This document shows, in pieces, positions 1 through 6,208 of a DNA stretch of 7,468 nt. The stretch covers positions 1-7,468 of the forward strand of contig CAZECW010000107.1 of assembly GCA_964510585.1 (NCBI GenBank), in the 5' to 3' direction. The stretch is from an uncultured archaeon. GTDB lineage: Archaea; Asgardarchaeota; Jordiarchaeia; Jordiarchaeales; Jordiarchaeaceae. The notes below the pieces were generated by a model. It made no database searches. It was given only the letters and a program-made list of their open reading frames with translations, and had not been told where the DNA came from. Each line of letters opens with the position of its first letter. Position 1 is the stretch's first letter. The position numbers and the translations under genes were made by a program.

Positions 1-134
1 GCTCCAACCTAGAAAAGGGGATGGGAAGCCCTCCAGACTTGCGGGGAACTTGAAAAACCAGAACGCTTTTGAGAAAACCTAAAAGAAGGAGAAGAAAATA
101 CACGTAAACCCCAAAAATTCATCCGAATCTATAG
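1..134. other. Purine-rich segment not homologous to FGGY kinase; possible end of an inserted element
   Basis: None of the three forward frames gives kinase-like sequence upstream of about 133, and all three contain stops. The segment ends ...AAAATTCATCCGAATCTATAG at the point where kinase similarity begins. Element family not identifiable by eye. Confidence 0.35.
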
Positions 135-1107
135 TCCTGGAAAACATGACTGGTCGGATAAAATTCTCAAAAAGTATGGAGTAGACAAAGAAAAACTCCC
201 CGAAATAAAAGCTTCAACCGATGTTGCTGGTAAACTCACAAAAAAAGCTGCGGACGAACTAAGTCTAAAAGAAGGGACACCAGTTATCGTTGGGTCAGGC
301 GACGTGGCAGCAGTGGCTGTGGGTTCTGCTGCAGTTAAAGAAAGGGAATACTTCATTTATATCGGTACTAGCGACTTTATGGGCACCCACACAAAGCACA
401 GAAAGGTGGATATATCCCACTATATGGGAAGCATATGCAGCGCTATCCCCGATATGTACCTATACACGGGAGAACAAGAAACTGCGGGTACCTGTTTAGA
501 CTGGGTGAAGAATGAAGTGTACAAGAGTTCAGCTGAGGAGCTTGGAGAGAAGGTTTATGACTTGTTGGACGAGGCTGCGGGAAAAATTCCGGCGGGTTCT
601 GAGGGACTTATGTTCACCCCATGGCTATCCGGAGAGAAAACCCCTATGGACGATGACACCATACGTGGAGGATTTCACAACTTGAGCCTTGAACACAACC
701 GAGACCACATGGTTAGAGCAGTTATGGAGGGTGTTGCGTTTAACATCCGCTGGGCGTTTCGGTGCATGGAGAAAAAAATAGGGACTGCAAACTGGGTTAA
801 CTTTGTGGGAGGCGGAGCACTGAGGGAAACATGGGGCCAGATAATAGCTGACGTCCTTAATAGGGAAGTGAGGCAGCTTATAAATCCGAGGGAAGTTGGT
901 GTGAGAGGGGCGGCCATGATTGCTACTGTGGGTTTAGGTATACATAAGGACTTTCCAACTGCTGCTAAGCTGGTCAAGGTAACCAAAGTCTACAAGCCTA
1001 AGCCAGAAAACGTTACCACATACGACAAGCTTTTTGCCCAGTTCGAAAAACTCTACGAATGCCACAAAAAAATCTGCAAGTATATAAATGAGAAAATTCA
1101 CAAATGA
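73..1107 (+). pseudogene. FGGY-family carbohydrate kinase (xylulokinase-like), 3' fragment; 5' half missing or interrupted
   Basis: Frame 1 is open from 73 to TGA at 1105-1107, further than the 304 start in the ORF track. It reads ...PGKHDWSDKILKKYGVDKEKLPEIKASTDVAGKLTKKAADELSLKEGTPVIVGSGD..., then YIGTSDF, FTPWLSGEKTP, RAVMEGVAF, VGGGA...WGQIIADVL, GAAMIATVGLG, all typical FGGY motifs. In-frame stops at 10-12 and 70-72; kinase-like sequence starts only near 133. Confidence 0.8.
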
Positions 1108-2816: not shown

Positions 2817-2868
2817 GGTCGAAAATTTTCTCAGTGAACCATTTTTTGGCTTTTTTTAACAAAAATAT

Positions 2869-3555
2869 TTACATTTCTAACTTCGTCCACCTGAATCCGG
2901 GTATCTTCTTTCTCTTATTGTTCTTTTTGAAGGTGTATAGTCTTGCGGGGCGGTGGACGCCGAATTTGTATTTTTCTGTTGGTTTAACTATTCCCATAGA
3001 GAATATTTTCTTTCTGAAGTTTCTTTTGTCCAGTTTTTCTCCCAGAACCACTTCGTAAACTCTTTGCAGTTCGGTGAGGGTGAAAAATTTGGGAAGAATT
3101 TCTAGTGCTATTGCGGTGTATTCCAGTTTATATTTTAGTCTCTGGTGGGCGTATCTAATTATCCTATCTTGGCCCAAGGCTAGTGGTGGAAGTTCATAAA
3201 CTGAGTGCCAGGCTGCATTTTCCCTAATTTTAATTTTCCCAGGATACACTAGGGCAAAATAGGCAACTGTTATAACTCTACCTCCAGGGTCTCCCACCGC
3301 CTCCCCGTAGGTGTAGAGTTGCTCCAAGTAAAGGTTTTCAAAAATTCCCCCCTTCTCCTTCAAAACTCTTAGTGAGGCCTCCTCCAGAGATTCCTCTTTT
3401 TTTAAAAAGTCTCCGGGGAGTGCCCAAACCTCCCCATTGGACGAGGCATTGCTTCTATTTAGTAGCACCTTCAAATTGTTGTCTTTTATTGTGAATATGC
3501 ACACTTCCACCGAGACAAATACTGATTTTTCCAACTGAGCTGTATCAGTAGACAC
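2869..3555 (-). CDS. nrtR: NrtR-family transcriptional regulator (Nudix-like domain plus C-terminal winged helix)
   Basis: WALPGDF...ESLEEASLRVLKEKGG (degenerate Nudix box), YLEQLYTYG, VITVAYFAL, then wHTH FTLTELQRVYEVVLGEKLDKRNFRKKI...HRPARLYTF. GTG start with AGGTGGA RBS; overlaps the upstream gene's stop by 11 bp. Confidence 0.9.
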   Translation of the reverse strand: MSTDTAQLEKSVFVSVEVCIFTIKDNNLKVLLNRSNASSNGEVWALPGDFLKKEESLEEASLRVLKEKGGIFENLYLEQLYTYGEAVGDPGGRVITVAYFALVYPGKIKIRENAAWHSVYELPPLALGQDRIIRYAHQRLKYKLEYTAIALEILPKFFTLTELQRVYEVVLGEKLDKRNFRKKIFSMGIVKPTEKYKFGVHRPARLYTFKKNNKRKKIPGFRWTKLEM

Positions 3556-4705
3556 TTAGGTCCACCTTTTCCAGTCTGGGATTTGGCCGATACGGTCTGC
3601 CCGCCTTGTGCAGAGTTATAAATTCATCATCAACGAAGTAGCCCATAATATCTGAGGTAGCAACGTAGCGGTCGTCTGCGAAGCCGGCGCCTATAAAATC
3701 GAAGAGCTTCAAATCGTACCTTTGCTCACCAAGTATGAATGCTTCAACCTTTTTGGGGTTGCTAAATCCGCTTGAAAGTGCTATTTTCAGGTTGGGGTAT
3801 CCCTCGTCGTTAAATGCTCGTCTGGCGGCGGCAACCGCTTCAACAGTTACTCCCGTCCCAGTCCAATATTTTCTTCCATCAAAAGGCACGCCTCCCTCTG
3901 CTATAACTGCTCCATTCGTGTCGAACCTCGGCCCCCAGAAATCGTCCCCCAATTCTTCTGCAACTTTTAGGGTGTCAGTGATTTCTCTGTTGAACGTGTC
4001 TGCCAGAAAAATTCTTGGAACATCTTTAGGCATATGCTTGTGGAAGGCCTTCATGGTTTCCACAGCGGAATCTTCTTCACCATATTTTGAGGCGAATGCC
4101 AGAACTAAGGCGTGAGGCACTGTGCCCACCCCCTTCTGCCCAAATGTGGCTGCACCAATATCTGTTGAGGTGGACGCTGCCCCCGCTTCATAGGCTACTC
4201 TGGCAATTTTAGCATCCCACTCGTACCCATAGTGTCTGGCTCCAAAATAGGACAAGTGTCTGGGGCCAAACTTACTCTTATTTATTAGTTCAGCCACTTC
4301 TCTAACGTTTGCCCTAATTTTTTCCAGATCCGGCTCCGGCTCACCATTTGCCCTGCCGGTCCTATCTGATAGGATAGAGAGGTACATTGTCTCTAACTCG
4401 ATTAAATCTAGAATGGGGCCTTCAAGAAGCATTAGGGTTTCTTCGGGTTGATATGGAACCCCATCTTGAAGAGCGAAAATTCTCCCACCATGCTCCGCCA
4501 GTTTGGGACTGTACTTCATAATTGCAGCTATCGCTTCATCTATGCCACCAGTTATGCCTGGGCCTTTCCTTATGAAAACTTGATACCTTACAAAGGGGTT
4601 TATTCCCTCTTTTCTCAGTATTTCTGCGCTTCTCAAAAAGTACTTATCTGTATGTGGTTCGTGTCTTGGTGGGAAAGTGAATTCAGTTTTTCTTTGGCTT
4701 CCCAT
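3545..4705 (-). CDS. pncB: Nicotinate phosphoribosyltransferase-like protein (type II PRTase, NAD salvage)
   Basis: TDKYF N-terminal motif, LIELETMYLSILS, FGARH, GTVPHALVL (His motif), ADTFN, RFDTNG, KIALSSGF. ATG at 4705 with GAGGTG (4716-4711) 5 nt upstream. Adjacent to NrtR. Exact substrate (nicotinate, quinolinate or nicotinamide) is not provable from sequence alone. Confidence 0.82.
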   Translation of the reverse strand: MGSQRKTEFTFPPRHEPHTDKYFLRSAEILRKEGINPFVRYQVFIRKGPGITGGIDEAIAAIMKYSPKLAEHGGRIFALQDGVPYQPEETLMLLEGPILDLIELETMYLSILSDRTGRANGEPEPDLEKIRANVREVAELINKSKFGPRHLSYFGARHYGYEWDAKIARVAYEAGAASTSTDIGAATFGQKGVGTVPHALVLAFASKYGEEDSAVETMKAFHKHMPKDVPRIFLADTFNREITDTLKVAEELGDDFWGPRFDTNGAVIAEGGVPFDGRKYWTGTGVTVEAVAAARRAFNDEGYPNLKIALSSGFSNPKKVEAFILGEQRYDLKLFDFIGAGFADDRYVATSDIMGYFVDDEFITLHKAGRPYRPNPRLEKVDLSVY

Positions 4706-4743
4706 CCATACACCTCTTAATGTTTTTATTCAAACCCTTAACT

Positions 4744-4762
4744 TAGTGTATATTTTACACTA
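4744..4762. promoter_or_regulatory. Predicted NrtR operator TAGTGTA-TATTT-TACACTA
   Basis: Perfect 7-bp arms with a 5-bp spacer; contains the GT-N7-AC core described for NrtR boxes; lies 39-57 bp upstream of the pncB-nrtR start. Confidence 0.8.
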
Positions 4763-4765
4763 TTG

Positions 4766-4780
4766 TTATATATATCCTTT
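4766..4780 (-). promoter_or_regulatory. Archaeal-type BRE/TATA promoter of pncB-nrtR
   Basis: Minus strand reads AAAGGA-TATATATAA: a purine-rich BRE-like stretch followed by a TATA box, immediately upstream of the palindrome. Confidence 0.65.
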
Positions 4781-4903
4781 TGGTTTTAGCAAATAATACA
4801 CTAAGTTGTGTGGAGAAGAATCATGCTACATTGCCATTATAACCGAGGAATCGAAGTCGCTTTTACAACTTTTTGTATTAGATAGGGGCTTGCATCTTAT
4901 AAC

Positions 4904-6208
4904 TTATTCACCCATTTTCTTCGTGATGCGGGTTAGATTTGTGGCTGCTTCCTCAAATTTGGGGTTAAGCTCTAAAGCTTTGGTGAAGTCTTTTAAAGCT
5001 CTGGCGTATTCCCCTTTCTCCTCAAATATGAGTCCTCGGCTGTTATAAATAGTTTCGTCTTCGGGGTCTAGTGTTATTGCGTGTGTGAGGTCTGCTATGG
5101 CTTTATCAAGTTCTCCCTTTTTTCTCCAGGCTAATCCGCGGAAATGGTATGCAAACACGTATTTGGGAAGCAATTCTATTGTGTGTGTAAAGTCCTCTAT
5201 TGCCTTATCGTATTCGCCTTTATAGTAATAGATGAGTCCACGATTGTTGTATGCCTCAACGTAGTTCGGGTCGAGTCTAATGATGGTATCGTAGTCCTCT
5301 ATGGCTTTGTCGATTTCTCCCTTATCCTCCCATGCCAGGGCTCGGTTAAAATAGAATTCTGGCTCGTTAGGTTCAAGTTCTATTGCATGGGTGTAGTCCT
5401 CTATGGCCCTTTCAAAATCGTCTTTATAGTACCAGGCTAGTCCCCTTCTATTATAGATTGTTGCGAGTCTGGGCTCCAGTTCTATAGCTCTACTGAACTC
5501 TTTTATGGCTTGGTCGAGATTTTTTTTGGCGTAATATGCGATTCCCCGGTAGAGTGGATGGTCATAACATTTTTCAACAAGATTTGAGTTGAGATCGATG
5601 GCACGGGAATAATCTACTACCGCCTTTTTATGTTCCCCCTTAATAAAATACTGGAGCCCTCGGAAATAATAGGCGTTGGCGAAATCGGGATATAGTTTAA
5701 TAGCTTGACTGTAATCCTCTATTGCCCTATCAAGTTCTAACCTTGCGTGGAGGGCTTGGCCGCGATTATAGTAAGCATCCGCAAAACTGGAGTTTAGTTC
5801 AATGGCTCTAGTAAAGTCCTCTATTGCCTTATCCAGCTCCCCCTTTAATTTCCAAGCCAGACCACGATTATTGAACGCTTGTGCATTGTTGGGTTCAATC
5901 TCTATAGCTTGAGTGTAATCCCCTATTGCGCTATCGAGTTCTCCCATTTTCATCCAAATATTGCCGCGTTCCAAATAGGCTTGTGTATATTTGGGGTCGA
6001 GTTTTATGGCTTGGTTAAAATCCTCTAAGGCTTTTTCCAGATCTCCTTTAATGTGCCAAACGCACCCCCTATTATAGTAGGCTTGTGGATATTTGGGGTC
6101 GAGTTTTATGGCTTGGTTAAAATCGTCTAATGCCCGGTAGTAGCTTCCCTTACCCAGCCATTTGGTTCCACTATCATTGTAGTCAGCAGCACTTTTTGTC
6201 GTATTAAT
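4904..6208 (-). CDS. Tetratricopeptide-repeat protein, 12 TPR units plus capping helix (about 434 aa; start uncertain)
   Basis: 34-aa repeats of the form AYxNRGxxxxxKGExDKAIEDFTxAIELxP. The frame stays open and TPR-like for 78 codons above the TTG at 5974, up to TAA at 6220-6218. Those 78 codons contain no ATG/GTG/TTG; 6208 is an ATT. Confidence 0.85.
   Translation of the reverse strand: MNTTKSAADYNDSGTKWLGKGSYYRALDDFNQAIKLDPKYPQAYYNRGCVWHIKGDLEKALEDFNQAIKLDPKYTQAYLERGNIWMKMGELDSAIGDYTQAIEIEPNNAQAFNNRGLAWKLKGELDKAIEDFTRAIELNSSFADAYYNRGQALHARLELDRAIEDYSQAIKLYPDFANAYYFRGLQYFIKGEHKKAVVDYSRAIDLNSNLVEKCYDHPLYRGIAYYAKKNLDQAIKEFSRAIELEPRLATIYNRRGLAWYYKDDFERAIEDYTHAIELEPNEPEFYFNRALAWEDKGEIDKAIEDYDTIIRLDPNYVEAYNNRGLIYYYKGEYDKAIEDFTHTIELLPKYVFAYHFRGLAWRKKGELDKAIADLTHAITLDPEDETIYNSRGLIFEEKGEYARALKDFTKALELNPKFEEAATNLTRITKKMGE
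5976..6130. repeat. Two 53-bp near-identical copies 102 bp apart (5976-6028 and 6078-6130)
   Basis: TAGGCTTGTG[T/G]ATATTTGGGGTCGAGTTTTATGGCTTGGTTAAAATC[C/G]TCTAA, 2 mismatches; spacing equals one TPR unit. Confidence 0.95.

Follow-up and report, generated by a model that had tools for sequence, protein, structure and literature searches.

The window, which is the whole stretch of 7,468 nucleotides analysed here, corresponds to the entire contig C107 of a 217-contig bin (96% complete, 4.8% contamination). On its minus strand, an ATG at 4705-4703 opens an ORF of 386 aa (3545-4705), and a second gene overlaps the end of this ORF. The features of the two genes and of the region in front of them are listed below in the direction of transcription.

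4783..4805, minus strand: predicted distal NrtR box (box 1), CTTAGTGTA-N5-TGCTAAAAC, abutting the BRE
4775..4781, minus strand: BRE-like purine-rich element AAAAGGA, directly 5' of the TATA box (AAAGGA is 4780-4775)
4767..4774, minus strand: TATA box TATATATA, which reaches 4766 with one extra A
4742..4764, minus strand: predicted proximal NrtR box (box 2), core palindrome 4762-4744
4741..4747, minus strand: predicted transcription start, about A4744, 26.5 nt from the TATA centre and in the right half of box 2
4711..4716, minus strand: Shine-Dalgarno-like GAGGTG, 5 nt before the ATG
3545..4705, minus strand: pncB-like gene, 386 aa, divergent type II phosphoribosyltransferase
2869..3555, minus strand: nrtR, 228 aa, GTG start, overlapping the pncB-like gene by 11 nt
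2858..2865, minus strand: oligo-T run TTTTTGTT, 4 nt past the nrtR stop, candidate archaeal terminator

The host is an Asgard archaeon (Jordarchaeia/Freyarchaeia), and the locus is not a binning error. Four kinds of evidence indicate this. The bin contains two full TBP genes. The GC content of the contig is 43.5%, compared with 41.7% for the bin, and its tetranucleotide profile is ordinary for the bin. Orthologues of NrtR with 66-96% identity are labelled Jordarchaeaceae, Jordarchaeum, Freyarchaeota, or Lokiarchaeia, while those of the PncB-like protein include one of Candidatus Freyarchaeum deiterrae, on a 3.58-Mb contig. The pncB-like/nrtR pair is present in all six genomes of the genus, one of which is closed (a single contig, 3.6-Mb chromosome). 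The archaeal host presumed in an earlier, sequence-only reading of this DNA is thus confirmed. All 6 genomes of the window's genus contain the NrtR_WHD domain, against 0 of 5 in the sister family. No match above the cut-off is found in the other 389 Asgard genomes, and the domain is confined to one genus among the 400 Asgard genomes searched. The sequencing runs containing the locus are hot-spring metagenomes.

The product of the first gene is probably a nicotinate phosphoribosyltransferase, based on models that match below their cut-offs and on the operon context in relatives. Only NAPRTase models of NCBIfam match the 386-aa protein. All of them score below cut-off (the best is NF006415, with 131 bits against 243), and the protein thus falls short of the curated NAPRTase threshold. 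Its best PDB match is 2i14, and it shares only 23% identity with the classical PncB from one relative (L018). PncB-like genes of relatives head operons with pncA, nadE, nadK, and nrtR, or with aspartate dehydrogenase, pncA, nadE, and nadM. These NAD-gene operons support a role of the PncB-like protein in NAD salvage.

The second gene encodes a protein of the NrtR family, as the sequence-only reading had proposed. It matches Pfam NrtR_WHD (PF21906) with an E-value of 1.5e-24 and 86.3 bits against a cut-off of 27, and NUDIX (PF00293) at residues 17-133 with an E-value of 3.6e-9. The score of AraR_C on the same protein is 47 bits, in comparison with 86 bits for NrtR_WHD. The PDB matches are 5bs6 (Bacteroides AraR, E 1.7e-39), which is the best, and 3gz5 (Shewanella NrtR). 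3GZ5/3GZ6 are the structures of Shewanella oneidensis SO1979. The equivalog model NF050029 of NCBIfam (ADPR-responsive repressor) gives 144.8 bits against a cut-off of 400. By these model scores, the window protein is a member of the NrtR family and not an equivalog of the characterised protein. The motif DKRNFRKK in the winged-helix domain is invariant between the window NrtR and its bacterial relatives, and so are RPA and Y207. The association of NrtR with NAD metabolism is seen in the overlap with the pncB-like gene, in the order pncB-pncA-nadE-nadK-nrtR in relatives, and in a box at nadA in the closed genome.

Throughout the Jordarchaeial clade, NrtR has the degenerate Nudix box RVLKEK, where active Nudix enzymes carry REUxEE. 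Judging from this degenerate box, NrtR is probably a sensor and not a hydrolase. LPG(A/D/V)F is common to the whole Jordarchaeial clade together with RVLKEK. Two further changes are more restricted. The window NrtR alone has GDPGGR in place of RDPRGR, with the loss of two arginines, and its closest orthologue (L011) retains RDPRGR. LALGQ replaces LAFDH in the window NrtR and in only one other orthologue (L025). Based on these two replacements, the ligand response of the window NrtR, or even its function, may be altered in this species.

The operon probably consists of the two genes, pncB-like and nrtR. The oligo-T run lies just past nrtR, and hpaB is preceded by a TATA-like sequence, TTATAAAT, and a GGTGG Shine-Dalgarno-like motif, which suggest that hpaB probably has its own promoter. 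Elsewhere in the window, an FGGY sugar-kinase gene (1-1107, plus strand) is truncated and matches only residues 201-520 of a 523-aa orthologue. The match corresponds to window 136-1095 with 94% identity, and the first 135 bases are unrelated and contain in-frame stops. Either the 5' part of the gene has truly been deleted or rearranged, or the contig end is chimeric.

The order and coordinates of AAAGGA, TATATATA, TAGTGTA-N5-TACACTA, GAGGTG, and ATG on the minus strand are all as the sequence-only reading had described them. The core of box 2 is a perfect palindrome composed of TAGTGTA (4762-4756), the spacer AAATA (4755-4751), and TACACTA (4750-4744), read on the minus strand. Four bases separate it from the TATA box and 27 bases from GAGGTG, and the centre of box 2 is 17.5 nt 3' of the TATA centre. 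It contains GT-N7-AC, the core that defines most NrtR boxes (PMC2330246), and a predicted 21-bp palindromic operator with this core is located upstream of the putative target genes. Box 1, missed in the sequence-only reading, has a perfect left half and a degenerate right half, and its centre is 23.5 nt 5' of the TATA centre. The TATA box is therefore flanked by NrtR boxes on both sides, and the perfect outer halves of the two boxes form a 17-nt inverted repeat around it. An A/T-rich TATA box, a purine-rich BRE, and a genome encoding TBP are what is expected of an archaeal TBP/TFB promoter. The function of AAAAGGA as a BRE is proposed by analogy with archaeal promoter rules. A search of 4600-4950 finds no sigma-70-type promoter, and the idea that a bacterial -35/-10 pair is retained in the window was dropped for this reason.

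Half-site-like sequences are also seen farther upstream. TACAAAAAGT is located at window 4865-4880 (minus strand), about 60 nt 5' of box 1 and just past the stop codon of a TPR gene. Together with the left half of box 1, it makes up an imperfect inverted repeat. Two orthologous loci (L015 and L018) contain an extra TTAGTGTA half-site 13 nt 5' of box 1.

With up to two mismatches, 0.03 matches to the palindrome pattern are expected per shuffled window, and any match appears in 5 of 200 shuffles. The exact palindrome occurs only once in the whole 3.78-Mb genome. The low expectation and the single exact match indicate that the palindrome is not a chance feature. At one or two mismatches, the genome contains 6 matches per strand, which is not above the control with the reversed pattern (8). 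A weight matrix was made from 15 orthologous sites, and the reversed genome was used as control, with a best score of 18.6. Box 2 scores 28.5, the highest of all sites. Box 1 has a weak right half and scores 20.2, just slightly above the control maximum, and this counts against the interpretation that we prefer below.

No other site in this genome exceeds the reversed-genome control. The best extra match, at C98:26624, was rejected, as it sits at the end of a gene without a TATA box. The sequence-only reading had suggested a scan of NAD genes for further sites, and the outcome is mixed. The upstream regions of nadA, nadE, and the pncA-like gene in this genome contain no box, and their scores are no better than those of random windows. 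In the closed genome, a box-1-type site is present at nadA (score 25.1), and another is present at a gene for an old-yellow-enzyme-like FMN oxidoreductase, downstream of nrtR (G006:C1:1243121-1243140, L110/L135; G006:C1:3048878-3048897; about 5010-5060 of L016/L017). Both sites have the same fixed spacing to the TATA box as box 1 has, and no box is found downstream. The nadA site is absent in three other species, including that of the window. This distribution of predicted sites indicates that the membership of the regulon differs within the genus.

Transcription in archaea usually starts about 26 nt downstream of the TATA centre. This spacing would place the start near 4744, where the palindrome ends, and thus inside box 2. 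The nrtR promoters of DPANN archaea point in the same direction. In the examined promoters (L027, L092, and L139-L153), the TATA box is followed after 0-4 nt by the box. In three DPANN genomes, the ATG of nrtR is only 1-3 nt past the box, too close for a leader to fit, so that the box must cover the interval from the TATA box to the start in these genomes. The RNA-library record consists of one 202-nt contig covering 4506-4707, which is uninformative on the start position. The tRNA genes found in this genome are just five, too few for calibrating the distance from TATA box to start.

An alignment of the promoter from nine orthologous loci shows conserved boxes, a conserved TATA block, and diverging flanks (mean column identity 67%). 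Three blocks are recognized: ACTTAGTGTA-N5-TACAAAA at box 1, with ACTTAGTGTA invariant in all nine promoters; AAAG(G/A)A-TTTATAT at the BRE and TATA box; and AATAGTGT-N7-ACACTAAGT. The TATA box is TTTATATT in most orthologues, and GGTG before the ATG is kept. The centre of box 1 is always 21.5-23.5 nt 5' of the TATA centre. The centre of box 2 is 15.5-17.5 nt 3' of the TATA centre at 7 of the 9 loci. This conservation, together with the presence of the same box at the promoters of bacterial relatives, bears out the description of the palindrome as a bacterial-type operator.

L014, L017, and the closed genome retain only a decayed version of the proximal box. They carry a full new box 40.5-43.5 nt downstream, against the Shine-Dalgarno-like motif, and this corresponds to a shift of about 25 nt. 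L018 has boxes at all three positions. The proximal box can thus be described as undergoing turnover with retention: it moves, yet it is always kept, which argues for its function. Of the relatives sharing this promoter layout, L018 and L138 are the deepest. L138 comes from a genome with 37% GC. Its PncB-like gene, 69% identical to that of the window, heads an operon with aspartate dehydrogenase, pncA, nadE, and a nadM-Nudix gene. The region L138:2860-3000 contains a TATA box and three NrtR boxes before the PncB-like gene, and the last of these boxes lies against the Shine-Dalgarno-like motif. No nrtR is present near this gene within the 7 kb examined.

The best explanation, to which we give a probability of roughly 0.75, is that the region 4705-4805 is the archaeal promoter of a pncB-like and nrtR operon controlled by its own product. 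NrtR, a winged-helix regulator derived from a Nudix protein, would have been acquired horizontally by this genus of Jordarchaeia/Freyarchaeia. We infer that its dimers bind two copies of the ancestral 21-bp box of the family, that their effect is repression at the predicted start, and that a NAD-derived ligand relieves it. Box 1 would lie directly 5' of the BRE, and box 2 would fill the interval between TATA box and start (about -19 to +1). NrtR on box 2 is expected to prevent the recruitment of RNA polymerase and the opening of the promoter, and the probable role of box 1 is to impede TFB at the BRE or to make the repressor complex more stable. When the ligand rises, NrtR would be released, and both the salvage enzyme and the repressor would be made. 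The ligand could be ADP-ribose, as in the studied bacterial members: ADP-ribose relieves the DNA binding of NrtR from Synechocystis and Shewanella (PMC2330246). Repressors of archaea bound at or after the TATA box are known to block TBP/TFB or the recruitment of polymerase, and a repressor within or against the BRE/TATA blocks TFB or TBP (PMC5937170).

The main competitor, clearly less probable than autorepression, is dual control, in which NrtR represses from box 2 and activates from box 1 by recruiting TFB/TBP. The two genes of the closed genome, nadA and the old-yellow-enzyme-like gene, fit this, as they have only a box-1-type site, at a fixed spacing from the TATA box, and a position immediately 5' of BRE/TATA is the usual one for archaeal activators (PMC5937170). 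However, all NrtR proteins studied so far are repressors (PMC2330246, PMC6800001), and a site abutting the BRE can equally repress by excluding TFB. Besides, the TATA and BRE-like elements of the promoters with box 1 do not look weak. If dual control were true, a bacterial repressor family would have become a position-dependent dual regulator in an Asgard genus, where NrtR would activate the two genes with box 1 only and repress its own operon, which has both boxes. Autorepression through both boxes remains the reading that we follow here.

It is rather improbable that the boxes are bound while the promoter has been misread. Transcription would then start from another A/T-rich element, and box 2 would act as a roadblock or be part of the 5' leader. 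L014 and L017 do have a second A/T-rich stretch before the displaced box. Were the leader transcribed (window 4706-4752, minus strand), base-pairing would be possible between the right half of box 2 (UAUACACU) and the Shine-Dalgarno-like region (GGUGUAUG). In an RNA fold of 4766-4706 (-10.1 kcal/mol, z -2.3), this half pairs with GGTGTAT of the Shine-Dalgarno-like motif. Such pairing requires a start upstream of the predicted one and is limited to the sub-clade of the window; the orthologues, which have GGTGAAT, lack it. The same box also precedes TATA boxes and then lies outside the transcript. The half-sites do not vary in a compensatory way, as would be expected of an RNA stem, and this is consistent with a protein site. 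The TATA block alone among the A/T elements keeps its distance to box 1 at all nine loci. A circuit in decay, in which the boxes are relics and NrtR has lost its ligand response or regulation in this species, is the least probable of the explanations and hardly to be expected. It can be speculated from GDPGGR and LALGQ in the window NrtR, where the closest orthologue keeps the arginines, and from a regulon that has shrunk to its own operon in this genome. Against this, the winged helix is intact, box 2 is both a perfect palindrome and the top-scoring site, and the frames remain open, with 92-96% identity to relatives.

Based on the phylogeny, the Jordarchaeial NrtRs form one clade with full support inside a mostly bacterial family. 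Support for its sister, Melainabacteria, is weak (83), and monophyly of all archaeal NrtRs cannot be rejected (p-AU 0.38). DPANN archaea are among the closest relatives of the two operon genes outside the genus. Transfer of a ready-made cassette from one archaeon to another and a direct bacterial origin are equally possible, and the weak sister support and the p-AU value preclude naming a donor lineage or the number of transfers. NrtR is present in 34 of the 301 sampled genomes of one DPANN class, and TBP is present in 3 of the 4 DPANN bins checked. In L026, L027, and L083, the DPANN nrtR adjoins genes for archease-RtcB, NAD kinase, ADP-ribosylglycohydrolase, or a second small Nudix protein. 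This neighbourhood hints at a wider ADP-ribose-related regulon in DPANN.

A literature search finds no paper describing NrtR in archaea, in line with the suspicion of the sequence-only reading that an archaeal regulon is little described. Among the papers searched, it also finds no regulator of NAD synthesis or salvage in archaea, and NrtR is treated in them as bacterial. A study of Nudix proteins of Sulfolobus calls NrtR bacterial and absent from that archaeon. Three aspects are new: the domain of the host, the placement of boxes on both sides of BRE/TATA, and the turnover of boxes within one genus. The regulator, the box, and the link to niacin salvage are already known from bacterial NrtR, and the mode of repression from archaeal LrpA and Phr. 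The Asgard identity of the host and the commonness of NrtR in DPANN had not been noticed in the sequence-only reading.

The locus shows that a complete unit of predicted repressor, unchanged operator, and target enzyme has come to sit on a eukaryote-like TBP/TFB promoter, in a lineage related to the ancestor of eukaryotes. Its layout is conserved yet evolving: boxes shift, and targets are gained or lost between species. Such a small circuit with simple predictions might shed light on how bacterial-type regulators act against archaeal initiation, and on how a regulon survives transfer between domains. It offers a testable model of NAD control in archaea that is mechanistically ordinary. Its value is limited by the fit to standard archaeal repression and by the commonness of the same circuit in DPANN archaea.

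Bacterial NrtR is the closest of the known systems. Its regulons include those of Shewanella oneidensis SO1979 and Synechocystis Slr1690, and those of Chloroflexi and Pirellula with pncB, pncA, and nadE (PMC2330246). The two-domain protein, the 21-bp GT-N7-AC palindrome, the link to niacin salvage, and the autoregulation layout are shared. The box TTAGTGTA-N5-TACACTAA is seen at nrtR/NAD promoters of Ktedonobacteraceae (score 28.5), Anaerolineae, Gammaproteobacteria, Blastocatellia, Saccharibacteria, CPR relatives, and others, and the window box is letter-for-letter that of the Ktedonobacteraceae, Anaerolineae, and gammaproteobacterial relatives. The bacterial box begins at or beside the -10 hexamer of TTGACA-N17-type promoters. 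In contrast, the window box follows a TATA box and, judging from the promoter elements, would act on a TBP/TFB promoter, not on a sigma-70 promoter. The two boxes bracketing BRE/TATA, the Asgard host, and the divergent 386-aa PncB-like partner enzyme are further differences. Bacteroides AraR (5BS6) has the NrtR-family fold and is the best solved-structure match by sequence, but AraR senses arabinose and controls sugar genes, whereas the context in the window is NAD salvage.

The nrtR promoters of DPANN archaea share the regulator family, the box, and its placement directly after the TATA box. They differ from the Jordarchaeial promoters, where the mRNA is predicted to be leadered with a Shine-Dalgarno-like motif. 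The conserved distal box abutting the BRE, the turnover of the proximal box, and a regulon that varies between species (nadA and the old-yellow-enzyme-like gene) also belong to Jordarchaeia. Among archaeal repressors, Pyrococcus LrpA and Phr (PMC5937170) are similar in having the operator between the TATA box and the start, where a block of polymerase recruitment is expected, and the circuit of LrpA is likewise autoregulatory. The regulator in the window belongs to an unrelated family, composed of a Nudix domain and a winged helix, and has a second site 5' of the BRE.
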